From: Elusimicrobiota bacterium | GTDB lineage: Bacteria > Elusimicrobiota > Elusimicrobia > UBA1565 > UBA9628 | Direction of reading: 5' to 3' | NCBI GenBank assembly: GCA_027319565.1 | Contig: DAHVNA010000029.1 | Coordinates: 1-28,839 of the forward strand | Length of the DNA stretch: 28,839 nucleotides | Shown: positions 6,115 through 28,838 of the stretch, piece after piece | Position numbering within the stretch: the first letter of the stretch is position 1 | How the letters are laid out: every line of letters starts with the position of its first letter | Position numbers and translations under genes: made by a program | Notes under the pieces: model-generated | The model's database searches: none | What the model saw: only the letters and a program-made list of their open reading frames with translations | What the model was told of the DNA's origin: nothing

Positions 6115-6119
6115 AATTC

Positions 6120-6128
6120 ATTCTAGCA
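6120..6128 (-). promoter_or_regulatory. Putative extended -10 (TGcTAGAAT), leaderless
   Basis: TGnTAGAAT 5 nt upstream of ATG 6114 on the minus strand, no SD. Confidence 0.55.
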
Positions 6129-6133
6129 AATTA

Positions 6134-6251: not shown

Positions 6252-6259
6252 TTTTAAAT

Positions 6260-8857: not shown

Positions 8858-8928
8858 TAGCGCCTAAAAGAAATTTCGCGATAAATTGAAGTTGCTCACG
8901 TCACTCCGGAAATCCGTAAGCCGTTGCC

Positions 8929-9041
8929 GTCATTCCGACGCAAGTCGGAATCCAGGAATATGTCTGGACCCCGGCTTTCGGCCCCTCTCCAACAGACTTA
9001 GAAGCGCCACTTCCTCGCCAATGCTCGGTCGCCGGGGTGAC
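8929..9041. repeat. REP-like hairpin doublet (GTCATTCCG..CGGAATCCAG / CTGGACCCCGGC..GCCGGGGTGAC) carrying a 51-bp insert at 8980-9030
   Basis: Aligns directly with copies at 12388-12516, 21123-21326 and 25637-25753. Confidence 0.88.
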
Positions 9042-9063
9042 GTCATTTGAATTCCTAGAATTC

Positions 9064-9072
9064 ATTATAACA
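9064..9072 (-). promoter_or_regulatory. Putative extended -10 (TGtTATAAT) for mgtA, implying a ~200-nt 5' leader
   Basis: The minus strand reads TGTTATAAT about 207 nt upstream of the mgtA ATG. Confidence 0.5.
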
Positions 9073-9093
9073 CTTTTTAGTTTTCCGCACATT

Positions 9094-9122
9094 TTGATAG
9101 ACTAGCGCGAGGGGATTATTCT
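9094..9122 (+). promoter_or_regulatory. Putative sigma70 promoter TTGATA-N17-TATTCT
   Basis: -35 at 9094-9099, 17-nt spacer, -10 at 9117-9122 and ATG 6 nt later. Confidence 0.55.
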
Positions 9123-9128
9123 ATTTCA

Positions 9129-10091
9129 ATGATCAGCGTCGAACGCAAGGCGTCTTATATTCTTTTCGGCATCTCGGCGGCCTTAATTATTTGGTTTCAG
9201 CTGGGCGCGGCTCTCTTGGCGGGCCTGATCTCTCTATTGATACTTGAATCGGCGAAAAAAATATCCCTTAAGAAATTTGGAAACACAAGTTCTAAACTCA
9301 TCGCCCTTTTTTCTTTTATCATTATTTCCGGCGCTTTTTTTTGGATATTGGCGGTCTTTGTCCGCTTAGCGACCATTCGAGCCCCCATGATCGTCTCTCT
9401 TTTTATTCCCAAAATAAAATCCTTGGCGGATCAATGGGGCGTTTCTCTTCCCTTTGACAATCTCGATGATATCCGCGCCTTGATTGCCAGCTCGGCCAAG
9501 GATAATCTTCGGCAAATTACCCATGCCAGTTCCCTTTTGACCAAGGGATTTTTGCAAATTGCGCTGGCTATCTTTGCCGCTGTTGCCTGTTTTTGGGAAG
9601 AAGAAAACAAAGAGGCTCCCGAAGCCGGATTTTCCGAAAGGCTTCGCGCGGAGATGTCGGCTCGAATGAAACTGTTCATGAAAGGCTTTCGGAAAGCCTT
9701 TGGCGCTCAGTTTACGATTTCTCTCATCAACACGGGGCTAGTCTCGTTTTTGCTTTTAATCCTGCAAATTCCCTACATCCGTTTTTTGATTACGGCGACC
9801 TTTGTTTTGGGGCTTTTACCCGTCATCGGCGGCGCGGTCACCAACGCGGCCATACTGGCGGCGGCTTTTACAGTTTCCACTAGAACCGCCATTCTCACGC
9901 TTATTTCCCTTTTGGTTTTACATCACGCTCAATACCCCATTCAAGGCCAGGTTTTCGGCGAGCAGATGAAGGTTCCGGCCTGGGAAATTTTAGTGGGGCT
10001 TATTTTGGGAGAGGCAATTTTAGGGGTTGCGGGAATGGTCTTGGCCCCGGCCGCGGTTTTTTATCTTCACTCGGAATTTGAGCTACTCTAA
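9129..10091 (+). CDS. AI-2E (UPF0118/PerM) family permease
   Basis: Multi-TM profile with LLPVIGG and the C-terminal G..LGVAGMVLAP pattern typical of AI-2E transporters. Confidence 0.8.
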   Translation: MISVERKASYILFGISAALIIWFQLGAALLAGLISLLILESAKKISLKKFGNTSSKLIALFSFIIISGAFFWILAVFVRLATIRAPMIVSLFIPKIKSLADQWGVSLPFDNLDDIRALIASSAKDNLRQITHASSLLTKGFLQIALAIFAAVACFWEEENKEAPEAGFSERLRAEMSARMKLFMKGFRKAFGAQFTISLINTGLVSFLLLILQIPYIRFLITATFVLGLLPVIGGAVTNAAILAAAFTVSTRTAILTLISLLVLHHAQYPIQGQVFGEQMKVPAWEILVGLILGEAILGVAGMVLAPAAVFYLHSEFELL

Positions 10092-10096
10092 AATAA

Positions 10097-10690
10097 TTAA
10101 CTGCCGCGAAGGAAAAGTTTAATCATTTCCGATTCCGCGTAGAAATAAAGCTCACAGCGGATCGTAAAATTAGACTGCGACATCACGATATTGCTGACGA
10201 CCAAAACGTTGGCCCCCGCAATCTTTTTAAATCCTTCTTCTATCATGCGCCGCCTGGTGCCTTCCGAAACCTCAGGGACAGACAAAATTAAAAGGGTTGA
10301 AAAAAGCTCTCCCAATTCTCCGCAAAAACCGTGCGCGACGATGTTCGATATTTCCTTGACCACGTCTTGGGGGGGAAACTGAGTATGAGCGCCCACCTGG
10401 CTATAAATCTTGTTCCAAGCTTGTCCCAGTGATGCGACGCTGTCGGGAGACATGATCAGATGAACTCCCAAGGGAACTCCGTCCTGAAGGGGAAGATAGG
10501 CCGACCAATAGGGTTTCTCGGAGTCGGGAAAAGTCGAGAAAAGAGGAGTTTCAAAATTATGATAGATGGAAGAAGCGGTACACTTCCAGGATTCTTGGCT
10601 CAATTTAGAAAGGTATTGAGCCGTTCTTTGCGCCCCGGTGTCAAGCGCGTTTAAGATCAGTTTCTGCTCTCGCTCGGAAAGAGATTCCAT
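10097..10690 (-). CDS. CheC/CheX-family response-regulator phosphatase
   Basis: Intact D-x3-E-x2-N-x22-P motif (DVVKEISN...SVP), with a degenerate first CheC motif. Directly follows the CheY-like gene. Start moved to ATG 10690. Confidence 0.75.
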   Translation of the reverse strand: MESLSEREQKLILNALDTGAQRTAQYLSKLSQESWKCTASSIYHNFETPLFSTFPDSEKPYWSAYLPLQDGVPLGVHLIMSPDSVASLGQAWNKIYSQVGAHTQFPPQDVVKEISNIVAHGFCGELGELFSTLLILSVPEVSEGTRRRMIEEGFKKIAGANVLVVSNIVMSQSNFTIRCELYFYAESEMIKLFLRGS

Positions 10691-10697
10691 GGATGAG

Positions 10698-11060
10698 TTA
10701 TGGGAATACCTTCGACAAAGCGGCCATGATATCCTCGACGACAAAGGGTTTGAGCAGAACTCCGCTGGCCCCCAACGCCAAGGCCTGTTTTTGGAGCATT
10801 TTTTGATCGTTGGCGGTCACGATTAGAATTTTGGCCTGCGGATGTTTGAGGCGAATTTCTTTTAAAACGAAAAGTCCGTCCATATCGGGAAGAGAAATAT
10901 CCAAGGTCATGAGATCGGGATTATGCTCGGCGTATTTCGCGATGGCGTCTTTCCCATTTTCGGCAAAGCCCACAACCGTGTGCCCCAAACTCTCAATGGT
11001 CATGGACAACAACTCTCGCATCATGGGCAAGTCTTCGACGATAAAAACATTTTTTCCCAT
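10698..11060 (-). CDS. CheY-like single-domain response regulator
   Basis: VED, AENGKDA, PDLMTLDISLPDMDG (phospho-Asp), TA and KPF. Resembles Bacillus/Thermotoga-type CheY. Confidence 0.88.
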   Translation of the reverse strand: MGKNVFIVEDLPMMRELLSMTIESLGHTVVGFAENGKDAIAKYAEHNPDLMTLDISLPDMDGLFVLKEIRLKHPQAKILIVTANDQKMLQKQALALGASGVLLKPFVVEDIMAALSKVFP

Positions 11061-11119
11061 ATTTTATTTCCCGCTTAATTCTTTCAAACCGCCTTATTCT
11101 ATCAAAAACCAAGCGAAAG

Positions 11120-11497
11120 TCAAGCCCCCAAGCGGCGTTCCAAGGCCTTGACCCGGGCCAAAAGAACTTCGCGCTCAAATGGCTTGGTCACGTATTCATC
11201 TGCCCCGCGGTTATATCCTCGAATTTGCTCGACGACCAATGCCCTGATAGTCAGCATTAAAATAGGGAGTTCCGAATACGCTAAATCCTGGCGAATGCGC
11301 TCGGTCAATTGAAGGCCGTCAAGGCGGGGCATATTGAAATCAAAAATGCCCATGTCCGCGCCTTCTGCCTTGAGTTTTTCCCAGCCTTCTTGCCCGTCGG
11401 TTGCCTCAAGCACCTCATAGCCCTCTTCTTCGAGCATCATGCGAAGAATTTCCCGCACCGAAGCGTCGTCGTCCGCGATTAGAATTTTTTTAGCCAT
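11120..11497 (-). CDS. Single-domain response regulator (receiver)
   Basis: ADDD, DFNMPRLDG, MLT and GADEYVTKPF. The start overlaps the upstream regulator's stop. Confidence 0.92.
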   Translation of the reverse strand: MAKKILIADDDASVREILRMMLEEEGYEVLEATDGQEGWEKLKAEGADMGIFDFNMPRLDGLQLTERIRQDLAYSELPILMLTIRALVVEQIRGYNRGADEYVTKPFEREVLLARVKALERRLGA

Positions 11498-12191
11498 CCT
11501 TATTTTTCCTCCGTTGCGAAGAAATAGGGACTGTCACTATTTCCCAGGCGTATCCGATACCGTGAACGGTTTTGATGCAGGACCCCCATTCGCCGAGTTT
11601 TTTACGCAAGGATTCAATATGCTTATCCACCGTTGAAGATTGGACGCTCTCTGAATCGGAGCGAATCATCTGGAGTAAGGTTCTTCTCTCAAGCGCGATT
11701 CCCGGACGTTCCAAGATAAAAGAAAGAATTTCAAATTCCGTTTTTGTTAAATCGAGAATCTTTTCGTTTAAAGAGGCCGCACGCTTTAAACGATCAATTT
11801 TAATTTTTCCGTCCTTGGACTTAATCTCTTTCGGTTCCGGCGGTTTAAAACGCCTAAGCGCCGCTTCGAGTTTCGCCGCGAGAAGCTCTCCCGGCATATC
11901 AGAAGAAATCACGTCATCAGCCCCCGCGTTTAAAAGCTCAACTAAACGCGCCGGAGCTTGGGTTCTTGATGCGACCAGAAGAGAAATTCCGCGGGCTTTT
12001 TCCCGAATGAGTTTAAGGCTTAACGCGTCCGGCAATAAAGACTCGGCGATCAAGACCGCGCCCGGAGGGATGGGCAAAAGGGCTAGGACGCTTTTAAAAT
12101 CCGCGCTTCTTGAAATTTTCCAGCCCCTGAGAGAAAACGCCTCTTCCCAAATTTTTCCCAAAGGCTCTGCTCCCGCGATCAAAACTTCCAT
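11490..12191 (-). CDS. OmpR/PhoB-type winged-helix regulator with degenerate (pseudo-)receiver
   Basis: C-terminal LTKTEFEIL...VDKHIESLRKKL...IKTVHGIGY. The receiver lacks the acidic pair, phospho-Asp and KP motifs. Start set at ATG 12191. Confidence 0.85.
   Translation of the reverse strand: MEVLIAGAEPLGKIWEEAFSLRGWKISRSADFKSVLALLPIPPGAVLIAESLLPDALSLKLIREKARGISLLVASRTQAPARLVELLNAGADDVISSDMPGELLAAKLEAALRRFKPPEPKEIKSKDGKIKIDRLKRAASLNEKILDLTKTEFEILSFILERPGIALERRTLLQMIRSDSESVQSSTVDKHIESLRKKLGEWGSCIKTVHGIGYAWEIVTVPISSQRRKNKDG
11521..11543. repeat. Imperfect palindrome gaaatagggactgtcactatttc inside a CDS
   Basis: Same family as 6134/6239 and 27344. Translated as EIVTVPIS in the regulator tail. 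Confidence 0.65.
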
Positions 12192-12232
12192 TATTAAAAT
12201 TAATCTAGCAAATATCAATTAAAAAAAGCGAC

Positions 12233-12696
12233 GTGACCGGAAAGTCACGGACGCAACGGAGGTAACGGCAAGATACAGAAAGGAACAGAAAGAAACGGAT
12301 GCAACGGAAAGACACGGAAAGCAAAAGAAATCAACAGAGAGCAACAGAAAGAAACGGAGGTAACGGAAAGTAAAAGAAAGAAGGGGACTGGATTCCGGCT
12401 TACGGCCGCTCTCTAACAGACTTGGAAGCGGGTCGCTCTTTAACGAATGCGGAAGCGACACTTCTTCGCCTATGCTCAGTCGCACTTCCTCGCCAATGCT
12501 CGGTTGCCGGAATGACGAAGCCCCCTCGTTGCCTTCCGCCACTTTCCGTTGCATTCCGTTACATCCGTGTCTTTCCGTTACTTTCTGTTGCATTCCGTTA
12601 CTTTCTTTTACTTGCCGTTACGTCCGTTGCTTTCCGTGTCTTTCCGTTTCTTTCTTTATACTTTCCGTTCCCTTCCTTCGCCATTTCTTCGTGATT
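12233..12696. repeat. Composite inverted repeat: ~15 GNAACGGAAA-type units, REP hairpin with nested 51-bp units, inverted TTTCCGTTNC-type array
   Basis: Left arm 12233-12381, core 12388-12516, right arm ~12526-12696 ending in ttccttcgccatttcttcgtgatt. Confidence 0.9.
12404..12505 (+). mobile_element. 51-bp site-specific insertion unit with a second, diverged 51-bp copy nested inside it (12431-12481)
   Basis: Removing 12431-12481 restores a 51-bp unit. Removing that unit restores ctggattccggcttac|gccggaatgac. Mobility is inferred from filled versus empty sites. Confidence 0.65.
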
Positions 12697-12719
12697 GCCG
12701 CGGAATTTTCATATACAAT
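12691..12719 (+). promoter_or_regulatory. Putative promoter GTGATT-N17-TACAAT
   Basis: The -35-like hexamer is the end of the repeat arm. The -10 is at 12714-12719 and the ATG 8 nt later. Confidence 0.45.
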
Positions 12720-12727
12720 TTCAATTA

Positions 12728-15700
12728 ATGGGAAATAAAAAAATTCCGTTTCTCTCCCTTCTTCTGATTTTGGCGGCTCTCGCGCCCTCAGCTCAGGCGC
12801 AGGTGCAATTGGCGATAGCGACGCCGACTTATCCCGCAAACGGATCCTATTTTAGCCTTCAAAATAACGTCCCTAATTTCAATTGGATGGGGCCCAGCAC
12901 GACGACCATCGCTCTTTCCACTTCGCCCGTTTGGAATCTCGACGTCAACACCGACCCCACATTTGTCTCGGGAGCCGTGATCAGCATTTCCACGCCAGCC
13001 GTTATTCTCAGCACAAATCTCGCGGGAACTCGCGGAACTTATATTTCAGGGACTCCGCTTTCCAACAACACGACTTATTATTGGCGCGTTTACGCGACAG
13101 ACGGATCGGGCGGCATGAGTCAGTCTTGGAGCACGTTTAGTTTCGTCACTAATTTCGCCAATTCTCCCAATCTCTCGGCCTCAAACTTTGGGAGCCTCAA
13201 TTCTTCAAATCAATTCACCCCAGAAAACACTTTTATTACTCTCGCCTCGGGTGTCACGTCCCAGATTTCCGTCGCGGATTCCATTAGCGGACTTGCTATT
13301 TCAACGTCCGCCCTTCCATTTTCCGGAGACGGCAATGACGCCGCGACGGGAACCAGCGGATATGGCGTTCTCTATTCTACAGACGCCGGATCAAGCTGGG
13401 AAGATTATTCCGCGCTCAACATCAGCGTCCCTTATGCTGGAGCCAATATTAACGTCCTAGCCGTATTCAATGGATTTCTCTATGCTGGCCTTAGCAATGG
13501 AACTATCCTCTATACTTCTAACGGAACGCTCTGGAATACGGTCTATTCCGGATCTGGAGGCGTGAGTCATTTTGTCGTTTTTAATAATCATCTTTTTGCG
13601 ACAACCAATGCTATCGTTTCCATTAATACCAGCAACGGGGTCAGCGTTGTTTTTAACGCTGGAGCCACGGGTCTCGGCGTCCTTAACGGAACGCTCTTTG
13701 CTGGGTTTTATCCTGGCAGCGCTATTTATGCCACGCAAGATGGAGTTAACTGGGTCTATACGGCAAACCTTGCAGTATGCTCGGACAACTCCGCAAGATT
13801 TTTTACATTCAACGGTGAAATTTACGCCAATATTACCGAGGGCCCAGGCATAAGTTGTAGCGGACTATTTAGAAGCCCAGATGGATTTAACTGGACAAAC
13901 GTTGAATATCAATCCACACCGGGATCTCTCAGCGGCGCAACAGTTTTTAATGGCGAGCTCTATGCGACAACGTATAATCCAGGAGCGCCTCTCCTTTATT
14001 CCAGTCAAGATGGTCTCAGTTGGACTGCGGACAATGGCTCTCTCTCAAATCCTTCCCTAGGCGGCACAGCTAACACTATCGGCGTGGCCAACGGAAAACT
14101 TTATGTGGGAATCAGCACGAATACCGCGAAAATTTATGAGACACCGGATGGAAATAATTGGTTTCCAACAATTGCAGGCGGCACCGGGCAAGGAGGGGCT
14201 GGGGCGCCGGTTAATTTCAACGGTACGCTTTATGCCGCCGCTGGACCAGATCTCATCCGCCTGACACCGGTCTCAACCACTCTACCTGGTGGAAACGGAA
14301 CGCCTTCGGGAACGCTCTCCGCCACAAATTTAAATCTTGTCACATCGACAAGCGCGACGACTTGCGGCGGAACTTATCCTTGCACGGCCACAAACCAGGT
14401 GATGTTTACGGCGTCTGACATGGCGGGGAATACCCTGCGCGCGGGACCCTATGCGGTTTTGGTCGACACGACGGTCGGACCCGCGATTTCGACCCAAACA
14501 TATCCCGCGAACGGGCAATATATCAACGTCAATCCCAATTTCGACTGGCAAGGGCCGAGCGTTGGGCTTATCTCATCTCTGCAGCAGCCCGTTCACTATA
14601 ATATGGAAGTTTCAAATTCTTCAAATTTTTCGAGCCTCCTTATTTCGATTAGCACACCGGCGATTATCGTCAGCACGGCAATCCCCACGGTCAATGGAGC
14701 CTATATCTCGACATACCCCGCCACGACATTCGCGAACAACACCTCTTACTATTGGAGAGTTCAAACCGTAGACGGCTTTGGCGCGGCAAGCGCGTGGTCA
14801 AGCGTCACAAGTTTTGTCACTGATTTTTCGAGCCCCACCGAATCGGGTTTTGAAAGTTTCAATCAACTTGGATCGCCCTTGACCGAAAGTCAGCTCAATA
14901 CACTCGCTTCGGGCGTGACTGCGCAGATTACGGTTCAAGATTCTATTTCGGGTCTCGCCGTTTCAAGCGGAGCCCTGGCTTTTCTAGGAGATGGGCATGA
15001 CGATCCGCAAAACACCAGCGGTTTTGGAACGATTTATTCGACAAATGCCGGCCAAAGCTGGATTAATTGGGCCGCTTCCACAAGCGCTCTGGTCGGCAGT
15101 TCCGGAGATAACATGGGCTCCCTCGCGGATTTTGCCGGAGAACTCTATACGGGAGATTACACTCATGGAGACGTCTATGTCAGTCCTGATGGGCTTAACT
15201 GGAGCGGAACCTCCGTCAGCAGTCCCATCTACGCCTTAGCGGCGTTTAACGGAGCGCTCTATGCGGGCAGCAATGGCAGCGTCTTTTCGGACTCAGGAGG
15301 AATCTGGAGCCTTGCGGCAAATATCGGAAATCAAATACGAACTTTCGCTGTTTTAGGCGGCACTTTATACGCCGGAGATGGGGGAAACGGGCATGTTTAT
15401 TCCACCGCTAACGGAACGAGTTGGAGCGACACCGCCACGGGAGCCAACTCCATCTACGCTTTAGCCGCTTTTAACGGCGCTATTTATGCGGGAGACGTGG
15501 TCACCGGAAAAATATATGAAAGCGCTAATAATACCACCTGGAACACTACCGGGATTACTCTCAATCAGGGCATTGGGGTTCTGAGCGTTTTTAACGGCCA
15601 TCTCTATGCAGGTGGAATAAAAGGAGACATTTATTCCAGCGTCGATGGAAAAACTTGGAATGTCGGAATTCCGGTGGGAAGCGACATTACCGCTATGAGT

Positions 15701-18700
15701 ATTTTTAACGGCCAACTCTATGCGGGAGACTCTAATGGGTATCTGCACTTCACTTCCGACGGCGTTAACTGGAGCACAGGGACATATTTGGGAGCGGGAG
15801 TCATCTCTCTTTCCTCTTTTAATGGGAATTTTTATGCTGGAGACACAAATGGCCAAGTCCATCAATTGACGCCCGTAACAGCGACGCTTTCAGGCTCTGA
15901 TGGAACGACATCAGCCGAGACACTTTCCACTTATGGTCTTGATCTGATTAGTTCAACGAACTCCGTCACCTGCGGAGGCATTTATCCCTGTGGAGCGACA
16001 GATCAGATTATATTTACCGCTTCCAACCTTGCGGGTAACGCTCTTAAGGCCGGACCTTACGCGGTTTTTGTCGACACCACCCTTCCGGCCCCGCCGACGC
16101 CAAGCTATCCCGCCGATGGCCAAAATATTGGGCTTAACCCCAATTTTGATTGGACCGGTCCCAGCACATCCATTGTCGCGGGGCTTCATCAACCCGCTTA
16201 TACGAATCTCGAAGTGTCTAATTCTCCAACTTTTTCGAGCCTTCTTATATCGATTAGCACGCCGGCGGTTGTTTCCAGCACTCAAGTCAGTACCGCGGAC
16301 GGGGCCTATATCTCGACTTACCCCGTTACAACTTTCCTGAGTGGTACGACTTATTACTGGAGAATTCAAAACGAAGACGGGTTTGGCAATGTCAGCACTT
16401 GGTCAAGCATATATAGTTTTGTGACCGATTTCTCATCTCCAACGGGATCTGGATTTGAAAGTTTTAACGCGCTGGGGAGCACTGTCACCGAATCTCAAAT
16501 CAATTTACTTTTATCGGGAGTCACGGCTCAAATTACCATTCAAGAAATCGACTCGGGACTCGCGGTGTCAAGTTCGGCTATTAGCTTCTCGGGAGATGGC
16601 CATAACGATCCGCAGGTTGCGGGTGATTCTTACGGCGCAATTTATTCTACCGATACCGGACAAAGCTGGATATCGTCTGTCTCTTCCTATCCTGTTCTGA
16701 CGGGAGAAACCGCCGTCAATAGTCTCGCCGAGTTCCAAGGAAATATCTATGCCGCGACGTCCAATGGCGGTAAAGTTTTCGTCAATGGAAGCCCGTGGAG
16801 CGCCTCGTTTACGGACGGAACGGGGAATATATTGGCCATGGCCGTTTTTAATAATCAGCTTTACGGCGGAGATTCAGCGGGGAAACTCTACTCTTATAAT
16901 GGAAGCGCCTGGAGCGGAGCTATCTCCGGCTACCCCGGAATTTCCGCCATCAACAGTATCATCGTTTTTAATAAAAGAATTTACTGCGCCGACAGCGGGA
17001 AAAATATCTATACCAGCCTGGATGGGGTTTCCTGGAGCCATGTATTTAGCGGCAGCGCAAGTCTAATCTCCATGGCCAGCTTCAATGGCCAAATCTATGT
17101 GGGAGATTCTGCCGGTCATCTCTATTCAAGCTCTAACGGAACTGATTGGTCGCAACAAAGTGGATATCCCGGGTCCGGCGTCTATTCGTTGGCGGTTTTT
17201 AGCGGCAAACTCTATGCCGGAGACACAAACGGGCTCTACGTAAGTTCCAATGGAGCGGCCTGGTCACAGCAAACTCAATATCCCGGAACGAGTGTCTACA
17301 CTTTGGCCGTTTTTTCCGGGGAGCTTTATGTGGGAGATGGAAACGGCAACCTTTACGCAAGCGCCAATGGCGCTATCTGGAGCCGCTCGTTATCCGTTCC
17401 CGGAGGGACTTTGTCCGCTCTTTCGGGCTTTGGCGCTCAGATCTACGCTGGCGATCAATTGGGTAATCTCTGGCAGGTAACACCCATCTCAGCAACTCTC
17501 TACGGGTCTGATGGAACGAATTCCGCTCAAGCATTATCGATCAAAAACATCAATCTCGCTCCCTCACAAACAACCCTGACCTGCGGTGGAACTTCTCCAT
17601 GTGCCGCGACCAATCAAGTACTTTTCTCTGCGTCTAATATGGCTGGAAATTCCACGCAGATCGGTCCCTACGCGATTTTAGTCGACACAATTCCCACCGA
17701 TGTGATTCTTACAACCGCCAATGTCGCTCCCAGCTCAATTCCTCAGGGCACCGACGCGGCTTTTATTCGCATGACGCTTCAGAGCGTGAGTGGAACGGCG
17801 CCTTGGACAGGTATTACCGTTCAGCGCGTTGGGGGGGGAACTGACTCGGACGTATCCAACGTTTCTATCTGGAGAGACTCGCTTAATGATGGAGTTTTTT
17901 CATCCACCGTTGACGCCCAAATTTCAAACCCAGTCTCATTTTCCGGTGGCGAGGCTCTCGTTGTTTTTACGTCCACTGAAAACATCCACACTTCGACGCA
18001 AGCCTATTTTGTCGTCTTGACGGCCAATTATCAAGCGACAGATGGAGACACAATAGGTTCTGAAATCGCCTCCACCGCTTCATTTGTGTTTTCTAGCGGC
18101 TACTCCGCTAGTAGCGGCCAGAAAAATATTTATCCTTTAATTTCGAGCACGGCGACAATAGTCGATGGCCCCAACAATTTAGACGTAACTCCGGTCAGCC
18201 AAGCGCCGTCCTACGACTCTCCCGGAACAACCGGAATTTCAATGCTGGCTCTGAAATTTCAAGTTCCCGCCACTACTCCCGGAACAAGCACTCTTTCAAA
18301 AATTGTTTTTCAGCTTCAGGGAACCGCGCCCTCTAATGACATTAGCTCGATTTCTCTCTATCGTGATAACGATAATAATGGGATATATGATCCGGGAGTG
18401 GACGGGCTCGTTTCATCGGGAAATGACTCATTTACTAACGGAGTTGCGACTGTCGCTTTCACCGCTCCCGCGGCCTCAGACACCGTCAATGAAACTCCCA
18501 TCTATTATTTTGCGGTGATTAATCTTTCCGTCAACGCCGCTTTGGGCGACACCATGCAAATCGCGGTAACCACAACAACAGACGTCCAACTCATTGACAC
18601 TCTTGACACAATAGTCTTTGTGAGCACCCCCGTCGCTTCTTCCACGATGACGGTTGAAAATCTCAATACACTCTCAATCGTGGGATCTAATCTCGCGCCT

Positions 18701-21028: not shown

Positions 21029-21431
21029 ACGGCAGTAACGGAAAGCAACGGATGTAACGGCAGGTAACAGAAAGACACGGAAAGAAACGGACGTAACGGA
21101 GGGCAACGGAATTCCCCTCCGCGTCATTCCGGCGACCGAGCATTGGCGAGGAAGTGCCGCATCCAAGTCTGTTGGAAAGCGGCCGAAAGCCGGAATCCAG
21201 CAACGGAAAGTTAATGAGAACGACCAAGAGAGGCGATGAAGGAATTGAGGGCAAAAGCCCGCTCGTCATTCTGACGAAAGCCGGAATCCAGATACTGGAC
21301 CCCGGCTTACGGCCTGCCGGGGTGACAAGGAGCCTTCGCCGCTTTCCGTTTCTTTCCGTTACTTTCCGTTACGTCCGTTTCTTTCTGTTTCTTGCCGTTT
21401 CTTTCTGTTCCTTTCCGTTTCTTTCCCTTCC
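21027..21431. repeat. Composite repeat: purine array, REP with 51-bp unit (21134-21184), ~50-bp linker module, REP doublet, pyrimidine array
   Basis: Arms at 21027-21111 and 21342-21431; hairpins at 21123-21200, 21265-21291 and 21295-21326. Confidence 0.88.
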
Positions 21432-22929
21432 CGCATCCGCCGCCAGCTCCTATGCGGGTTCCCCCAATGAAATATTTCAATTTGGAGCCGACGCTCGCGC
21501 GATGGGAATGGGAAACGCCTATACCGCGATTGCCGGCGGGGCTTCTTCCTTATATTACAACCCTGCGGGGCTGGGACTTCTCAATGGTCCCGATATCAGC
21601 GCCATGCAAGCAAGTTTAATCGGCGGAGCGGGATATGAAAATTTATCCTACGCCCAGAATTTTTCAAAAATGCCGGGAGCTTGGGGGGTCGAAGCCCTGA
21701 ACATGGGTATCAGCGGGGCGCAACAGCGGGATTCTCAAAACAATCTCACCGGAAGTTTCGGCTTTCAAGAAACCGGATACGGCGCTGGATTTGGACTGAG
21801 AAACGTCATCATCCCTAATTTGTCCTTGGGAGGATCCTTTCAGGGCCTCAGCCGCAGCCTTGGAGGAAGTTCTTCCGACATGCTTTACGGAGGAAATATC
21901 GGAGCTCAATACGGCCCTTTTTTCGACAACATGGTCACGGCCGGCGTGGTTGTTCAAAACGGATTTAGCGGGGCGCAAAACACCTTTGACCGGCTTCCGA
22001 CCGTTGTCCGCACTGGGCTGGCCATCACTCCCATGGATAATCTTCTCATCTCCGCCGATTATGGAGATGACGGGGATTATGGAATCGGAGCTGAATATCG
22101 AATATGGATGTTCGCCATACGAGCCGGATACATCCCGGAAGGCCTTACTTTCGGAGCCGGAATCTATTACAAATCTCTTGAGGCCGATGTCGCCATGGTC
22201 AACGATCCTGTCTTTGGACTGGGAGAGAGATTTTCTCTCAATTACCGCTTTGCAGGAAAGAAAAAAGAAAAACCTCTGGACGCTTACACCGAAAGCTATC
22301 TTGAGGCGGCGAAAAAAGAGCTCAATCTCCGCAACTATCTTAACGCGCAGCTCGCGCTTGAAGAAGCGCTGGGCATCAATCCCGCCCAGGTCCCGCAAGA
22401 GTGGAAGGAAAAGTTAAAGCTTTTAGAGTCTTTTAACAATGCCTTGGATCTCAAGGAACGCCCCGATGAGATTAAAACGCTTCGTTCTCAAGACCAAGCG
22501 GCCATTTTGGCACAAAAATCTATTTTCTCCTACTTAGACGGACACGACGGCGAGGCGATGATTTGGGCTTCGGTGGCCGCGGGATCCGGAAACAAAACAA
22601 TGCCCTATATTGACTTTGTCAAGACGATGGCTTATCTTACTAGGATGAAAGTCTCGGAGGGAGACTTGTTGCCGCCAGCGGAATTTGTCTCCAAGAAAAT
22701 GGAAACCGCGCTTCAGGCTATTTATCAAAAGCGCTTTGCCGACGCCGTCAAGGATTGCCGGCAGGCCATAACTATCAACCCCGATGAGTCCTCGGCTTGG
22801 ACCCGGCTTGGAAGCGCTTATTTCGCCTGGGGACATAAAAGAGAAGCCAAGAAAGCATATCAAAAAGCTCTTTCCTTGGACCCCAAGGACGTCGATCTCA
22901 AGAAATTTATGGAGATGTACATAAGATGA
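21322..22929 (+). CDS. PorV/PorQ (FadL-like) outer-membrane beta-barrel with C-terminal TPR region
   Basis: ARAMGMGNAYTA....SSLYYNPAGLG N-terminal signature, amphipathic beta-strands ending FSLNYRF, and TPR motifs (AWTRLGSAY...YQKALSLDP). The start is uncertain: GTG 21322 or ATG 21214. Confidence 0.82.
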   Translation: MTRSLRRFPFLSVTFRYVRFFLFLAVSFCSFPFLSLPASAASSYAGSPNEIFQFGADARAMGMGNAYTAIAGGASSLYYNPAGLGLLNGPDISAMQASLIGGAGYENLSYAQNFSKMPGAWGVEALNMGISGAQQRDSQNNLTGSFGFQETGYGAGFGLRNVIIPNLSLGGSFQGLSRSLGGSSSDMLYGGNIGAQYGPFFDNMVTAGVVVQNGFSGAQNTFDRLPTVVRTGLAITPMDNLLISADYGDDGDYGIGAEYRIWMFAIRAGYIPEGLTFGAGIYYKSLEADVAMVNDPVFGLGERFSLNYRFAGKKKEKPLDAYTESYLEAAKKELNLRNYLNAQLALEEALGINPAQVPQEWKEKLKLLESFNNALDLKERPDEIKTLRSQDQAAILAQKSIFSYLDGHDGEAMIWASVAAGSGNKTMPYIDFVKTMAYLTRMKVSEGDLLPPAEFVSKKMETALQAIYQKRFADAVKDCRQAITINPDESSAWTRLGSAYFAWGHKREAKKAYQKALSLDPKDVDLKKFMEMYIR

Positions 22930-22998
22930 GAAAGAAGGAACGAGTAGGAACGGAAAGTAAAAGCAAGTAACGGAAAGGAATGGAAAGCAACCGAAAAT
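22930..22998 (+). repeat. Solo purine-rich GNAACGGAAA-type array
   Basis: ggaacggaaa-gtaaaagcaa-gtaacggaaa-ggaatggaaa-gcaaccgaaa lies between two genes. Confidence 0.75.
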
Positions 22999-23009
22999 AG
23001 AGGAGCGAC

Positions 23010-25526
23010 ATGGATCTGATTGCCTTGGTTTTTATTCCAAGCCTCTTTCTTGTCCTAGGGGCTTTGATGTTTGTCGTCAGCCGGGTCATGGAATTTACGC
23101 AATCCAACCGCTATTTCGCAAAGCAAAGGGGAAATAACCTTATGTTCACTAAGTTCATGACTCAAATCGCCATCGCCAAAAGCCAATTGGGAAAAAGGGC
23201 GCAAGAATTGGAGGCTCTTTCCCTACGCCTTCAGATGAATAACGAGGAACTCGCCCGACTCAATAATCTCAAGATGAAGTTTCTGTCGATGGCGGTCCAT
23301 GACATCCGCAATCCTTTGACCGCGATCACGGGATACAGCGATATTCTCTCGCGAAACAAAAATTTGGGGCCCAGGGAACAAACTCTCTCTAAAATGATTT
23401 TGACCGCGACCAGACAAATCAATCACCTGATGGGAGACCTGACCGATCTGGCAGTCATCGAGGCGGGAAAGTTCCACATGGAGATGGCGCCCTTTGATCT
23501 AGCGGGGCTTGTTCAAGAAGTGGGGGCAACGCTGGCCCCCGGAGCATCAAATAAAGGAGTTATTCTCTCCGTTCGCGAACCTCCGCCCGGAATTACCATC
23601 ACCGCCGACCGCTACCGTATTTGGCGCGTATTGACCAATCTCTTGGGTAACGCCGTTAAATTTACTCCCGCGGGCGGACGGGTCGAACTCAGAGCCGAGG
23701 TCGCGGGGGGAATGGCGATGATTTCCGTTCAAGACAACGGGCCTGGAATTCACCCGACCGAGCGCCGAAAAATTTTTGAAAAATTCTACCAGTCCAAACA
23801 CATCAAGGATGAAAAAGCCCGAAAGGGCGGCTGGGGCTTGGGACTGGCTATCGCCCAGGAAATCGTTCAGGCCCACGGAGGGGAAATCGGCGTCGATAGC
23901 CGCGGTCTCGGCCACGGGTCCACTTTCTGGGTCCGCATTCCTCTTAAAGCCAGGCGCCCAGTGCGCTCAAATCCCATGCGGCTTTCTTTAGCCTTTCTTG
24001 GATTCCTTAGCCTTTCTTGGATTCCAAAGCCCATTCAAGCGCAAACAGTGGTTCCTTTTCTTGAAAAATCTAAATTCGAAAAATCTCTCGAAACAAAGGT
24101 CGACGGGGTTCTTCTCAACATTCTGGGCCCTAATCGCGCCAAGGTCATTATCAACGCGACCCTTGATTTCACGAAAACGGAAAGTTTCAAAACCGAAGGG
24201 GCCAGCGTAACGAGTACCAAGACATCGGGCTTGCCGTACCTTTGGCAAGAGCCGAGTAAAACGGAGCGACCTCAGGAACTTTTGCCCGGGGTGCCGCTTG
24301 ATTCCGGCGGTCCGGCCTCACCCGCGCCGCCGCCGTCCATCAAAGGCTATAAAAAGGAAGATTCTTTTCCTTCTAATTTTGTCAAACGCTTAGACGTGAC
24401 GTTAATTTTAGATAACTCCGTCAAAGGCAATCGCAGTACCGAAATCGGTAAAATTACCGCGGACCTTCTCAATCTTAATCCCAAAAGAGGGGATTCCTTG
24501 ACCGTCGTCCACACCGGATTTTCTCCGATCTGGAAAACCGTCTGGTATTCTCCGGAAACTGCGGGCATGCTTCTCAAATATATTTTGACTGGGTTTCTCT
24601 TTTTCATGGCGCTTGTCGTTATCGCCGTCGGATTTATCAAGATCGCCAATGCCATGAGAATGATGGCTAACGCCCAGGCTCAGCAAATTTCGATGGACAT
24701 GAAAGGACTGGAAGGCGAAGGAGGCGAAGGCCCGGGAGGGGTTTTAGGACGCAATACCCTGATGATTGGAGAACAAAAATCCGGAGAGAACGCGGAAGAA
24801 AACAAAAACGCGCCAATCATGTTTGACGTTAGAATTGAGCAAGTGGAAACCTTGGCTCAAATGCTTTTGCCGGAACCCCCTGAAAATATCGCCATTGTCG
24901 CCTCTCGTTTGACTCCCGAAGTATCCAAGAAACTCATCGAGGCCCTTCCGCCAGAGCTTGCCAGTTCCGTCATTAGTCAATTAGCTCGTCCGCGTTTTAT
25001 CGACCCGGAAATAATCGTCAATCTCAAGGAAGAGTTGGAGCGGCGTCTGTCCGGAGCCGTGGGAGGAGTTCATTATCTGGCGGAACTCATGTCGGCCGCC
25101 AGCCAAAAAAGGCGCCATGAAATGCTTGAAGCCGTGCGCGTGCAAAACCCCACTCTCGCCGAAGAATTAAGAAAGAGAGTATTCTTCATCGAAGATCTTT
25201 CAAAACTCACGCAGCAAGAGTGGTCGTATCTTTTGTCCCTGGTTACTTACCAAGAGTGGAGCGCGGCTCTCCATGAGGGTCCTAAAAGCGTGGTAGAAGC
25301 CATCAAGCAAAACCTATCAGAGAAGGCCTGGGGAGTCTTAAGCGAAATGATTGAAGCGTCTTCTCCAACGATAGAACAAGCGGAAGCGGCCCAAGATAAA
25401 ATCGGAAAAAGCGTTTCTGAACTGATTTCAGAACAGCGCATTAAAACCATCGCCCCGCAATTAGGGCTTCAAATTCATGAATCTCCCATAGAGGAAGAGA
25501 AAGATACGGAAAGTAACAGAAAGTAA
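23010..25526 (+). CDS. Fusion protein: TM - histidine kinase (HisKA+HATPase_c) - TM/signal-like segment - FliF C-terminal ring-building domain - TM - FliG middle/C-terminal domains
   Basis: H-box VHDIRNPLT, N-box NLLGNAVKFT, DNGPGI and GLGLAI. FliF-like LLNILGPNRAKVIINATLDF and VKRLDVTLILD...NPKRGDSLTVV. FliG-like EPPENIAIV (EHPQ), GG hinge, LAEELRKRVFFIEDL (MFxFEDL), NLSEKA and EAAQ. AGGAG RBS at 23001. Confidence 0.85.
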   Translation: MDLIALVFIPSLFLVLGALMFVVSRVMEFTQSNRYFAKQRGNNLMFTKFMTQIAIAKSQLGKRAQELEALSLRLQMNNEELARLNNLKMKFLSMAVHDIRNPLTAITGYSDILSRNKNLGPREQTLSKMILTATRQINHLMGDLTDLAVIEAGKFHMEMAPFDLAGLVQEVGATLAPGASNKGVILSVREPPPGITITADRYRIWRVLTNLLGNAVKFTPAGGRVELRAEVAGGMAMISVQDNGPGIHPTERRKIFEKFYQSKHIKDEKARKGGWGLGLAIAQEIVQAHGGEIGVDSRGLGHGSTFWVRIPLKARRPVRSNPMRLSLAFLGFLSLSWIPKPIQAQTVVPFLEKSKFEKSLETKVDGVLLNILGPNRAKVIINATLDFTKTESFKTEGASVTSTKTSGLPYLWQEPSKTERPQELLPGVPLDSGGPASPAPPPSIKGYKKEDSFPSNFVKRLDVTLILDNSVKGNRSTEIGKITADLLNLNPKRGDSLTVVHTGFSPIWKTVWYSPETAGMLLKYILTGFLFFMALVVIAVGFIKIANAMRMMANAQAQQISMDMKGLEGEGGEGPGGVLGRNTLMIGEQKSGENAEENKNAPIMFDVRIEQVETLAQMLLPEPPENIAIVASRLTPEVSKKLIEALPPELASSVISQLARPRFIDPEIIVNLKEELERRLSGAVGGVHYLAELMSAASQKRRHEMLEAVRVQNPTLAEELRKRVFFIEDLSKLTQQEWSYLLSLVTYQEWSAALHEGPKSVVEAIKQNLSEKAWGVLSEMIEASSPTIEQAEAAQDKIGKSVSELISEQRIKTIAPQLGLQIHESPIEEEKDTESNRK

Positions 25527-25942
25527 AAGAAAGCAACGGATGCAACGGAAAGACACGGAAAGTTAATGAGAGCGGCGAAGAGAGGCGATAAAGGAATTCA
25601 GGCACGAAATCGCTCCTCATTCCGGCTGCTGCCCCCGTCATTCCGGCGACCGAGCGTAGGCGAGGAAGTGCCGCTTCCAAGTCTGTTGGAGAGCGGCCGG
25701 AAGCCGGAATCTAGTTTCAAAAATTCCTGGACCCCGGCTTTCGCCGGGGTGACATCGAGCGTCTCAGCGCGCATGTCATCATCTATCATACGGCTATCAG
25801 CATCATTTTGTTCCCGCTCTTCTAACTCCTTTCCGTTACATCCGTTGCCTTCTGTTGCATCCGTTTCTTTCTGTTTCTTTCCGTTGCTTTCTTTTGCCTT
25901 CCGTTACTTGCCGTTCCGTTCCTTCGTCATTTCTTCGTGATT
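25497..25942. repeat. Composite repeat: purine array, linker module, REP with 51-bp unit (25648-25698), empty REP (25727-25753), pyrimidine array
   Basis: Same architecture as at 12.2 and 21.0 kb. The right end ttccttcgtcatttcttcgtgatt nearly matches 12673-12696. Confidence 0.88.
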
Positions 25943-25965
25943 AAAGCCCTTCTTTGTTCTATTCT
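25937..25965 (+). promoter_or_regulatory. Putative promoter GTGATT-N17-TATTCT
   Basis: Same geometry as 12691-12719, with ATG 25972 6 nt after the -10. Confidence 0.45.
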
Positions 25966-25971
25966 ATAGTT

Positions 25972-27342
25972 ATGGGTGAAAGTCCAAAAGGCTCCATCTT
26001 CGCGTCGCTCAGGGCTTTAGAGGAAGTCCCGGAAGAAACGCCTACGGCGTCCCCGGTTCAGCAAAGCGCTCCTCCCACACCGGCCCAACCCGCTCAGCCG
26101 CCGACGCCGCAACCAGCTCCTGTTACGCCTGCATCCAATGATGCTGTCAAAAGCGTGGAATCAAGAATTGAGAAAATGGAGCAAAAAATCCAGGAAATGG
26201 GAGCAGTCCCTCATTCGCCCATTCCGGACTCTCATCTTGACCGCATTGAAGCGCTTGAGAAAAAACTTCAACAAATGCAAGAACGCGCCATTCAAGCGGA
26301 AGTCGCGCTCAGAGAGCGGGAAAAATCTCAAGAAGCGGCAAGAAGAGAAACCGAAGCCCTGCTTCAAAATCTCGCAGCTCAAAGACGGCTAGAGGAATCA
26401 GATCGACAGATGAAGGAAAATCTGGCCTACTCCCGAAGACGCATCGAGGAATTGGAAGCGAAAAAGCCGGAATTTCCCACGGAAATTCCGCAAGAAGAAA
26501 TCACTCGAAAAATAGAAGAAGGGTTGCGCCCATTTTCAGAGACGCTGTCGCGTTTGGAACTTCAAGCGAAAGCCCTGCAAGAAGATGTCTATCGAAAAAC
26601 AGAAGAAGGGTTGCGCCCATTTTCAGAGGCCCTGTCGCGTTTGGAACTTCAAGCGAAAGCCCTACAAGAAGATGTCTATCGGAAAACAGAAGAAGGGTTA
26701 CGCCCATTTTCAGGGACGCTGTCACGTTTGGAACTTCAAGCGAAAGTTCTGCAAGAAGATGTCGCTCGAAAAATAGAAGAAGGGTTGCGCCCGCTTTCAG
26801 AGGCCCTGCCTCGTTTGGAACTTCAAAATGAAAATATTGGGAAAATGGGGCAAAAACTTAAAAATCTGGAAAACCGCGTTGATTCTTTTTTTGCCTATCA
26901 AGCGGAATTTACTCAAGACATCATCGAGAATCAAAAAGCCCTAGCCGCAACTAAATTCCAAGCCCAAAAGACGGAGGAGATTCTTAAAAACACTCTTGAG
27001 CAATACGCACGGTTTGAAAGCTGGTTTCGCAATCGTCCTATAGTCGCCGCACAAGCGGATTCTCTTCATCAGACTCTCTCTCATTTTAAAAAAATCAATG
27101 AACAAACCGCTGCGGCTACAAAAGAAGAACTTGATAAAATCAGTTCCGCTCTTAGCCATTTGATCGATCAAGAGAAAATGTTTGAAAGCTGGCTGGACTC
27201 ATCTCCTCTTCCCCAAAAATATTCAAATCCGGCTGTCTCCAACACTCCAGGGAAAAGCGAGGATATCGAAGAACTTGAGGAAGATTTCCAGAAAATATTA
27301 TCCGTCCTTGACTCGGGATTAAACGTCCCGCCCAACAAGTAA
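25972..27342 (+). CDS. Hypothetical cytoplasmic coiled-coil protein with Pro-rich N-terminus and 29-aa tandem repeats
   Basis: Long E/K/Q/L-rich ORF with no TM segment. ATG 25972 preferred over TTG 25954. Confidence 0.8.
   Translation: MGESPKGSIFASLRALEEVPEETPTASPVQQSAPPTPAQPAQPPTPQPAPVTPASNDAVKSVESRIEKMEQKIQEMGAVPHSPIPDSHLDRIEALEKKLQQMQERAIQAEVALREREKSQEAARRETEALLQNLAAQRRLEESDRQMKENLAYSRRRIEELEAKKPEFPTEIPQEEITRKIEEGLRPFSETLSRLELQAKALQEDVYRKTEEGLRPFSEALSRLELQAKALQEDVYRKTEEGLRPFSGTLSRLELQAKVLQEDVARKIEEGLRPLSEALPRLELQNENIGKMGQKLKNLENRVDSFFAYQAEFTQDIIENQKALAATKFQAQKTEEILKNTLEQYARFESWFRNRPIVAAQADSLHQTLSHFKKINEQTAAATKEELDKISSALSHLIDQEKMFESWLDSSPLPQKYSNPAVSNTPGKSEDIEELEEDFQKILSVLDSGLNVPPNK
26506..26826 (+). 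repeat. Intragenic 87-bp tandem repeat, ~3.7 copies
   Basis: Units start at 26506, 26593, 26680 and 26767 (RKxEEGLRPFSExLSRLELQAKALQEDVY). Confidence 0.95.
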
Positions 27343-27343
27343 A

Positions 27344-27364
27344 AAATGGGGCCTGTCCCCATTT
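27344..27364. repeat. Palindrome aaatggggcctgtccccattt (REP-like; possible terminator)
   Basis: Lies immediately after the stop at 27342. Same family as 6134/6239/11521. Confidence 0.65.
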
Positions 27365-27391
27365 CATTTGGAATTCGCTTTTCTTTCCTTA

Positions 27392-27397
27392 TATAAT
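27392..27397 (+). promoter_or_regulatory. Putative -10 box (TATAAT) for leaderless motAB transcript
   Basis: TATAAT 7 nt before ATG 27405, no SD. Confidence 0.55.
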
Positions 27398-27404
27398 AAG
27401 CAAC

Positions 27405-28142
27405 ATGGAACTAACATCAATTATCGGTCTCGGAGCAATTCTCATTTTAACCGCGATAGGCCTTGCAACCGGAGGGCTTCCCGCGGTCTTTATCAACTGG
27501 CATGGAATTGGGATTGTCATAGGGGGCACTTTCTGCGCCTTGATGATTAACACCCCGATGGATATTTTGCTTAGAACCGGAGCCTCCTTGACCGATTTAT
27601 TTTCGGCCGATCCCTATATCGATCGCCTAGGAATTATGGACGCCGTCATGTCCTTGGCCCAAGATATTCAATCCCGCGGGATGAGCGCCTTTCAAAACGT
27701 CAACAAAGCGGTCGCTTCCGGTTATTTAGCCTACGCCGCTCAAATTGCCGTTGAATATAATAATCCGGAAATTCTAAGACAGGTTCTGGAAAATGAAATC
27801 ATTCAGAACTCCGATTTGCAAAACGAGGCGGTCAACGTCTTTAGAACTGCCGGCATTTTAGCGCCCATGTTCGGCCTTTTGGGAACCTTGATTGGAATTG
27901 TCGAGGTCCTGCGCCAAATTGCCAACCCCGCTCAGGTGGGATCCGCCATGGCGGTAGCCATCACGACCGCTTTTTACGGTATCGCGATGGCCAACGTCTT
28001 TTGCGTTCCCATCGCCGGGAAACTGCGCATCAGGTATTGGAGGGAAACACAGGCCAAATCCATGATTCTCGAAGGAGTTTATGAAATTCTCCAGCGAACG
28101 CCCGCAGTCATTATTTCGCGAAAACTAAAATCCTATCTATAA
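27405..28142 (+). CDS. motA: Stator A subunit (MotA/PomA family)
   Basis: N-terminal TM pair (FIN..GIGIVIGGT), APMFGLLGTLIGIV and MAVAITTAFYG...AN...PIAGKL. Precedes motB. Confidence 0.9.
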   Translation: MELTSIIGLGAILILTAIGLATGGLPAVFINWHGIGIVIGGTFCALMINTPMDILLRTGASLTDLFSADPYIDRLGIMDAVMSLAQDIQSRGMSAFQNVNKAVASGYLAYAAQIAVEYNNPEILRQVLENEIIQNSDLQNEAVNVFRTAGILAPMFGLLGTLIGIVEVLRQIANPAQVGSAMAVAITTAFYGIAMANVFCVPIAGKLRIRYWRETQAKSMILEGVYEILQRTPAVIISRKLKSYL

Positions 28143-28145
28143 AAC

Positions 28146-28838
28146 ATGAGACGCTCGCGCCACGAGGAACTGGAAAACCAGCTCTCAAAATCCGCCCAGT
28201 GGGCCATCACCTACGGCGATTTTATGAGCTATCTCATGATTTTCTTTTTGATCATGTTCTCTTTTACCCTATCTAAATCCGGGGGGAAAACGACCGAAAA
28301 TATCAAATACCAACAATCCCTGATCAAAATTCAAAAAGTCTTCGGCGGCAAGGGCTCTTCTCTGGATTATGATCGGCTCATCAAAAGAGAAAAAGAAGAG
28401 TCCATGGTGACCCAGCTTAAACAAGCCCTCGACAAAAAGGATTTATCCAAGTACGCGAAAATAGAAACCTGGGATAAAAAAATTCGCCTTATTTTGGCCA
28501 GTGCCGTTCTCTTTGATTCCGGAAGAGCTACGCTGGCGCCGCGTTCTGAAAAGATATTGGCGGCGGTCGCCCAACAACTCAAAACCCTGGACAATCCCAT
28601 CCAAATCGAGGGCCACACCGACAACGTGCCGGTTCGCGGCGGAAAATACAAATCAAACTGGGAACTCTCTATGGCCCGCGCTTATTCCGTTTTAGTTTTC
28701 TTTCAAAAGCAGGGAATCAACCCGCAAAGATTATCCGCCATCGGCTACGGAAAATATCACCCCATCGCGGACAATAGCACTCCCGCAGGGCGGGCAAAAA
28801 ATCGTAGAATCGAAATAGATTTATTGAGGACTCAATAA
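28146..28838 (+). CDS. motB: Stator B subunit (MotB/PomB family) with OmpA-like peptidoglycan-binding domain
   Basis: TM motif WAITYGDFMSYLMIFF with the conserved Asp (D25), plus IEGHTDN, NWELSMARA and NRRIEI. Confidence 0.93.
   Translation: MRRSRHEELENQLSKSAQWAITYGDFMSYLMIFFLIMFSFTLSKSGGKTTENIKYQQSLIKIQKVFGGKGSSLDYDRLIKREKEESMVTQLKQALDKKDLSKYAKIETWDKKIRLILASAVLFDSGRATLAPRSEKILAAVAQQLKTLDNPIQIEGHTDNVPVRGGKYKSNWELSMARAYSVLVFFQKQGINPQRLSAIGYGKYHPIADNSTPAGRAKNRRIEIDLLRTQ

Follow-up and report, generated by a model that had tools for sequence, protein, structure and literature searches.

Rotor proteins without a filament have been reported in 11% of non-motile species, in a paper whose available text leaves their function open (PMC12199754), and homologues of motAB, flbD and fliG have been noted in non-flagellated Elusimicrobiota, where, in the part of the preprint at hand, gliding or twitching is speculated on and the role is called unclear (10.1101/2022.07.08.499144). 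The analysis described here concerns a window of 28,839 nucleotides (nt), the whole of contig C33 of an Elusimicrobiota genome (G000; 2.03 Mb, 91.65% complete), in which a flagellar rotor and stator lie beside genes for a giant surface protein and its carrier, suggesting an undescribed motor that moves adhesins or senses their load. The parts of this operon are all known, and their combination is unlike any described system; the function given below is a proposal drawn from sequence. To our knowledge, no described system uses FliG with a FliF ring outside the flagellum, and literature searches found none. The same searches returned no description of the operon, most subscription papers being outside their coverage. 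The available text of 10.1101/2022.07.08.499144 mentions neither a FliF fusion nor PorV, and it was searched for neither SprA nor PorV. Within the parts available, term searches found no mention of the phylum in PMC12505986 or PMC12199754 and no passage on motility or secretion in 10.1101/765248, and PMC12204202 mentions Elusimicrobia for TolA and CpoB alone.

With the flagellum the operon shares the RBM3/beta-collar part of FliF, the middle and C-terminal domains of FliG (FliG-M/C), and a stator of flagellar type that has the plug, the OmpA domain and the Asp. It differs in that its rotor is a natural single-pass fusion with a signal peptide, which lacks RBM1 and RBM2 and carries extra tetratricopeptide repeat (TPR) or kinase domains; furthermore, the genome has no FlhA, rod, flagellin or FliM/N matches, and the charges of the torque helix are altered. 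The T9SS (type IX secretion system) and gliding machinery of Bacteroidota (SprA, PorV/SprF, SprB, GldLM, GldJKN) likewise has a SprA-like translocon, a 14-stranded carrier beside cargo with a C-terminal domain (CTD), cargo of giant size, and a carrier that extends at its C-terminus into the periplasm. However, GldL, GldM and GldN were not found here (in searches without a positive control), the neighbouring motor is FliF-FliG/MotAB, and the CTD is of type A/FlgD-like kind yet is paired gene by gene with a carrier, like type B cargo. Published abstracts restrict the T9SS to the FCB (Fibrobacteres-Chlorobi-Bacteroidetes) group, outside which the Elusimicrobiota lie. The SpoIIIAG ring of the sporulation channel also has an RBM3-type ring domain outside the flagellum (profile E 1.5e-4; Foldseek E 0.058), but it lacks FliG, a stator and an outer-membrane partner, and FliF scores somewhat better (profile E 2e-5). 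The Agl-Glt gliding motor of Myxococcus combines an ion-driven stator-like motor, a trans-envelope adhesin link and a cytoplasmic coiled-coil partner, AglZ. The machine proposed here would share the stator-like motor, the adhesin link and the cytoplasmic coiled coil, whereas AglRQS is not known to have a FliG/FliF ring. AglRQS has been placed in a generic, TolQR-like group in the available text of PMC12505986.

The genes named by a first-pass annotation of the window were all found, in the order and on the strand that it gave:

12695..21028, plus strand: giant exported surface protein of 2777 amino acids (aa), likely start ATG 12731; candidate adhesin
21154..22929, plus strand: PorV-like outer-membrane barrel of 14 strands (beginning near 21433), followed by a C-terminal TPR domain of 10 helices (PorV-TPR), assigned by profiles and a model
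23010..25526, plus strand: histidine kinase-FliF-FliG fusion, with HisKA, HATPase_c, a weak YscJ_FliF_C, FliG_M and FliG_C
25954..27342, plus strand: cytoplasmic coiled-coil protein with a Pro-rich N-terminus and an 87-nt repeat at 26490-26826; no hydrophobic segment
27405..28142, plus strand: MotA, flagellar-type stator A subunit, with Gln at the position equivalent to R90
28146..28838, plus strand: MotB with plug, OmpA domain and a conserved Asp in its transmembrane segment; the gene lies at the contig end and is complete

Judged by homology and gene order, the rotor-stator is genuine and conserved, does not belong to a flagellum, and is linked to genes for a carrier and cargo of T9SS-like kind; the system is T9SS-like without being demonstrably a canonical T9SS. 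The annotation had remarked on the lack of other flagellar genes in the window, and this holds for the genome. FlhA has no match in G000 (positive controls match in 4), nor do rod proteins (PF00460), flagellin (PF00669) or FliM/FliN (PF01052), whose positive controls also match; these genome-wide negatives cover four families, FlhB, FliPQR and hook not having been searched genome-wide. No complete flagellar gene set was found in G000. Among 251 Elusimicrobiota genomes surveyed (the G-numbers used here; f-numbers are families and L-numbers fetched regions), FliG_C occurs in 92, mostly in open reading frames (ORFs) of 470-720 aa, and of the 91 FliG-positive relatives, 85 were tested for FlhA; 79 of these are without it and the other 6 have it.

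Linkage of the rotor to the carrier is kept across the phylum. The sample consists of 40 regions from 38 genomes, hand-picked (not at random) from the listed FliG_C matches with long ORFs and selected by FliG_C alone. In 38 of these 40 high-scoring loci a PorV-TPR gene lies directly upstream of the fusion gene, so that the annotation's proviso of conserved linkage in relatives is borne out. When a profile of the TPR region was run on 14 genomes absent from its building set, 13 had a match 1.4-1.7 kb upstream of FliG_C. A CTD gene stands just before PorV-TPR in 29 of the 40 loci (19 giant, 10 small stand-alone CTDs). All relatives with source names are Elusimicrobiota, as are the 3 named clusters among 10 looked up.

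The rotor fusion has a transmembrane segment (residues 1-30), a HisKA-HATPase_c kinase (88-313) without a sensor domain, an internal signal-peptide-like segment (about 324-344), a FliF portion composed of RBM3 and beta-collar alone (346-515), a second transmembrane segment (about 518-549), and the middle and C-terminal domains of FliG (602-814); RBM1/2 and a separate FliG_N are absent. The flagellar RBM3 and FliG-M/C folds are recovered by Foldseek on the predicted model (FliG, E 6e-11; MS-ring RBM3, E 5e-5), whose mean pLDDT is 78 and pTM 0.39; within this model the predicted domains are reliable and their arrangement is not. Of 29 clusters, 22 (among them the one that holds the window's protein) are kinase fusions of 819-876 aa. 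The 21 junctions listed retain the internal signal-like segment ahead of RBM3, mostly without Met, and non-fused relatives start with such a signal peptide. Since the junctions keep this segment mostly without Met, the fusion is taken to be a real translational one. An assembly artefact was rejected as its cause, the fusion recurring in G142, G090, G188 and 21 other clusters, and an internal restart at the junction Met is unlikely, most relatives having no Met there. Leads outside the phylum come solely from atlas clusters: long FliG-M/C proteins (446-681 aa) are found in clusters that have Balneolota, Bdellovibrionota, Bacteroidota, Myxococcota and Pseudomonadota as their most frequent phyla, and one Pseudomonadota cluster has FliF_C, FliG_M and FliG_C. 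In P0105, a MacB-like periplasmic domain is joined to a FliF RBM3-like domain.

The carrier gene scores 66 bits with PorV_fam, below the cut-off of 90, and carries TPRs in addition; a profile of its family matches Flavobacterium johnsoniae PorV with E 3e-16. Its predicted model (pLDDT 89) has 14 strands followed by 10 helices, and the best structural match is PorV (Z 30.4), with FadL-family barrels near at Z 25-29. Even-stranded outer-membrane barrels usually have their termini on the periplasmic side, and because of this usual topology the TPR domain is presumed to be in the periplasm. A predicted complex of PorV-TPR with the RBM3 domain scored 0.01 against a mark of 0.32, which is evidence neither way. 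The suspicion that porV is broken in the G188 orthologue was rejected, as a 774-aa frame clusters with PorV. A near-identical second copy of the PorV-TPR gene of contig C27 (described below) lies alone on a 1.6-kb contig (G000:C80:15-1622) and is a duplicate or strain variant.

The giant protein pairs a signal peptide with a C-terminal Ig-like CTD, as T9SS cargo does, and between these lie three repeated modules of Ig and propeller-like domains and further Ig-like domains. The CTD (20729-21025) is of type A/FlgD-Ig-like kind: it reaches 27.5 bits with FlgD_ig (cut-off 27) and 20.8 bits with Por_Secre_tail (TIGR04183), below the cut-off of 23, and a profile of 35 such CTDs finds the CTD of PorU as its best match (E 8e-10) and FlgD next (E 3e-6). 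In G000, 7 ORFs end in such a CTD, and 5 of the 7 are followed by a PorV-like gene of their own. A CTD protein of at least 6093 aa (G000:C24:1-18279) has no adjoining PorV gene; it may be cargo of the C27 operon, where a CTD gene is missing. CTD-only genes of 130-180 aa directly precede PorV-TPR in L037-L041, L044-L047, L059, L060 and L065-L067; such stand-alone CTDs possibly act as a plug or adaptor. Degenerate 10-nt repeat arrays, inverted around an 82-nt palindromic element, lie at 12226-12679, 21034-21430, 22921-22997 and 25492-25936, that is, at gene junctions and inside the leader of PorV-TPR, which they extend. The G188 orthologue has a different repeat, together with a gene resembling a transposase associated with repetitive extragenic palindromic elements, at the same junction.

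The annotation had also proposed a T9SS-like link, and a SprA-like translocon gene is indeed present in the genome. It encodes 1918 aa (L078:9446-15202, minus strand, on contig C20 of G000). Its profile matches SprA (6H3I) with E 7.8e-21 over 4 collinear stretches, and it matches TIGR04189 with E 1e-15, below the cut-off; the single sequence has no match in the PDB or Pfam. GldM has no match in G000 or in any of 80 genomes, nor do GldL and GldN in G000 or in any of 5 genomes, all in searches without a positive control; GldK was not searched. A BamA-like gene with POTRA domains lies 3 kb from the SprA-like gene. On contig C27, G000 has a second operon, composed of a riboswitch, PorV-TPR, a FliF-FliG-TPR fusion, a coiled coil, motA and motB. 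Upstream of its riboswitch are two Gly/Ala-rich membrane proteins without a Pfam match (L003:2106-4581), and genes of like size stand at the same place in G188 and G150.

The stator is of the flagellar (FIT) type. MotB_plug and OmpA are above cut-off and the MotB transmembrane Asp is kept; MotA matches the flagellar model with E 2e-41 versus 3e-5 for TolQ. Two charge pairs of MotA and FliG, R90/D288-D289 and E98/R281 (positions mapped by alignment, numbering from PMC12505986), are both missing in the window, where MotA has Gln at its two positions and FliG has K, E and M. Operons were sorted by gene order into types A, B, C and D, the window being type B. In type A, MotA has Lys or Arg at position 90 in 25/25 and FliG has E288 in 39/40; in type B, FliG has Gln at D288 in 25/31. 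The E98 position is Gln in 4/4 flagellar MotA of the phylum, so the charge changes are not diagnostic; with an intact MotB Asp, ion flow probably persists. In three or four close operons, the gene that corresponds in position to the coiled-coil gene is related to it. An apparent MotA-MotB fusion in L073 was rejected in favour of separate overlapping frames. Type D operons (L157, L158, L159, L163, L164, L165, L167) have two motB genes, the second with Asn in place of the channel Asp, which suggests an asymmetric MotB heterodimer.

Trees of 59 MotA-family rows and 70 FliG rows (the latter a quick version; both with midpoint root and long-branch warnings) keep the operon types apart, both mutually and from the flagellar copies of the phylum, except that D is unresolved in the FliG tree; they support no claim on the order of events. 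Type B, that of the window, is long-branched and kinase-fused, and its MotA is sister to that of type C. MotA of type B groups with that of type C in a single clade (97/87, with a warning that the join is between long branches), and 9/10 of these proteins have Gln at R90. Around type C loci stand 2-4 kinases and 2 regulators, and the coiled-coil gene that follows the rotor is joined to a histidine-kinase domain in L150, L155, L156 and L168. Types A and D make up the majority and usually lack a kinase adjoining the fusion; type D is often without an adjacent PorV.

Gene content across families bears on what the motor is for. A SprA-like gene is found in 226 of the 251 genomes and PorV_fam matches in 80 of 80. 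Two families, f4 and f14, which their small genomes suggest are host-associated, keep both (SprA-like gene in 77/79 and 48/70; PorV_fam in 34/34 and 28/28). FliG_C occurs in these families in 1/79 and 1/70, MotA in 1/31 and 0/23 (with one query), and the operon's PorV-TPR subtype in 0/28 and 0/23, respectively. By these counts the rotor, the stator and one carrier subtype have been lost together, and SprA/PorV export exists without the motor. The f14 genome with FliG (G121, L005) has a FliG of canonical length, 348 aa, and no FlhA or MotA match; its contig is possibly misbinned.

In 31 of 41 loci a cyclic di-GMP-I riboswitch is found 1.6-2.9 kb upstream of the fusion gene, before PorV-TPR or before a small CTD gene that precedes it; 1 of these 31 is under the gathering score. 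In G000, G150 and G188 one is found just upstream of the SprA-like gene as well. None was found in 5 f4 and 4 f14 genomes, nor does the window have one, nor do the two nearest relatives tested. In G052 a full chemotaxis cluster separates the coiled-coil gene from motAB, and in G149 and G211 such a cluster is located directly upstream of the operon; these are three FlhA-negative genomes of three different families. Five Che regions were fetched, and those of G131, G073 and G063 contain no rotor gene within the fetched stretch. Contig C37 of G000 carries two CheY-like genes and CheW and, by reading of the sequences, CheA, CheC-CheD, a methyl-accepting chemotaxis protein and CheR. A protein of 650-740 aa with an N-terminus that reads as FtsA-like is regular in chemotaxis clusters (L115:14227-16428; L170, L171, L172, L174, L176).

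In the window, the CheY- and CheC-like genes that the annotation described as divergent are both on the minus strand, and two response regulators absent from it lie between this pair and the giant gene:

10097..10744, minus strand: CheC-like phosphatase with the second ExxN-type motif kept; candidate member of the system
10698..11060, minus strand: CheY-like single-domain receiver, with a paralogous CheY/CheC pair on contig C23; candidate member of the system
11120..11497, minus strand: single-domain receiver that may partner the fused kinase
11490..12218, minus strand: OmpR/PhoB-type regulator whose receiver is degenerate; may be the fused kinase's output

When 8 CheC-like proteins, that of the window among them, were combined in a profile, this matched CheC with E 3.5e-34; the window's sequence by itself has no CheC match in the PDB. 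With the CheC seed, the window was the sole match among 42 regions, most of which stop short of the upstream side of the giant gene. The rest of the window (2-10091) holds housekeeping genes: by reading of the sequence, a phosphomannomutase-like gene, a nucleotidyltransferase, an S-adenosylmethionine synthetase, a fused CoA-transferase, a cystathionine lyase/synthase and a Mg-type P-ATPase, and by Pfam an AI-2E transporter. These show no sign of membership in the rotor-stator system.

The best explanation of the operon is an accessory module atop a phylum-wide SprA/PorV/CTD export route. Somewhat short of even confidence, we take it for a flagellum-derived, ion-driven accessory motor that acts on PorV-anchored adhesins and gives surface movement. 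The cargo would leave through SprA and remain attached to a PorV-TPR carrier of its own, like SprB to SprF; the fusion protein would assemble into a ring without an export gate; peptidoglycan-anchored MotA5B2 would turn this ring via FliG; force would pass to the carrier through the periplasmic TPR tail, directly or by a further linker; and the adhesin so moved would produce surface movement, under cyclic di-GMP and, in some lineages, chemotaxis control. From the available parts of the papers concerned, SprB remains on its co-expressed carrier SprF (PMC9143113), SprF has a periplasmic C-tail that attaches to the moving track (PMC12635249), and a FliF-FliG deletion fusion without FliG_N still swims with reduced function (PMC6445934).

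Several observations weigh against the accessory-motor reading. Movement and physical contact of the parts are predictions from homology, gene order, co-loss and regulatory context, and the model does not account for the action of a ring through the peptidoglycan; G000 has no FliM/FliN match that would supply the switch input. In 10 of the 40 loci just a stand-alone CTD of 130-180 aa precedes PorV, and in 11 a CTD gene is missing at that place. PorV is nearby in just 10 of 20 additional regions, 18 of which surround weaker FliG_C matches (divergent paralogues) and 2 G188 motA matches. The motAB genes are inside the fetched region in just 20 of the 40 loci (in 5 genomes checked, the type A pair is located elsewhere), and 4 genomes have a type A MotA and no FliG_C match. 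The R281 position of FliG is Gly in 33/40 type A proteins versus Arg in 4/4 FliG of canonical length, and the window's clade has Gln at MotA R90 (4/4), mostly without the acidic FliG pair. The co-loss amounts roughly to two large events plus a few scattered genomes, and kin are not independent. Finally, CheW is found in 27 of the 251 genomes, 4 of them without FliG; since only 23 of the 92 FliG-positive genomes have it, most motor-bearing genomes are without CheW.

One rival holds that the adhesin-tethered ring and stator form a surface or load sensor, reporting contact or load to the histidine kinase and on to the nearby response regulators. The lack of a sensor domain in the fused kinase, the prevalence of real, translational kinase fusions among the clusters, the kinases and kinase-fused coiled coil of type C, and the joint MotA clade of types B and C with its Gln at R90 are all consistent with it, as are the missing riboswitch of the window and the four regulatory genes head-to-head with its operon. 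For the family this remains unlikely, because the majority types A and D usually lack an adjoining kinase, and because the intact MotB Asp probably keeps ion flow whatever the undiagnostic charge changes mean. Furthermore, if signal peptidase cuts the internal segment, the kinase and ring part; cleavage of an internal signal reportedly has a precedent in Bacillus subtilis RsiV. The sensor is most likely in type C and in the window's type B copy, for which it is more probable than for the family. That copy, a faster-evolving, divergent, kinase-fused paralogue, may be a modified or partly sensory motor, and it may sense rather than move because it is kinase-fused, has no riboswitch and lacks the usual charge pair.

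The annotation had supposed that rotor and stator were repurposed to energise either secretion or surface movement, and of the two, movement fits better. Were the ring to replace GldLM/GldKN, it would eject carrier and cargo from the SprA-like translocon, perhaps for the giant cargo alone; the presence of that translocon, the GldM search that was empty (though without a positive control) and the riboswitch upstream of the SprA-like gene would accord with this, and in Bacteroidota one energy chain drives both gliding and secretion, according to the available text of PMC12635249. However, f4 and f14 keep SprA-like and PorV-family genes without rotor or stator, so general export does not need the motor, and several paralogous motors per genome, with chemotaxis linkage, fit a single housekeeping energiser poorly; a secretory role is improbable on these grounds. 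It is less probable still that a CTD and PorV cassette is merely co-regulated with a flagellar remnant serving pili, envelope remodelling or nothing. Such cassettes are promiscuous, 5 of the 7 C-terminal CTD genes of G000 adjoining PorV without any motor (a point that also tells against the accessory motor), type D often has no adjacent PorV, and a link to twitching is proposed in the part at hand of 10.1101/2022.07.08.499144. Yet one PorV-TPR subtype follows the rotor both in position and in loss, and many families conserve the genes in intact form, with trees that agree.

The accessory-motor reading can be extended, possibly if with more doubt than belief, to free-living Elusimicrobiota at large: they would have a new surface-motility machine in which a FliF-FliG/MotAB core without gate or filament turns or drags adhesins that a GldLM-independent SprA/PorV route delivers, and duplicated, kinase-coupled copies like that of the window would be mechanosensors. 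The operon provides a concrete, testable case of rotor proteins that have no filament, and its natural one-gene rotor a minimal system for torque generation and for the modular evolution of the flagellum. SprA/PorV/CTD secretion is also extended beyond the FCB group, to a phylum that seems to do without GldLM, and the question arises of what powers export there. For the non-flagellated magnetotactic Elusimicrobiota, the proposed machine would offer a mechanism of motility.

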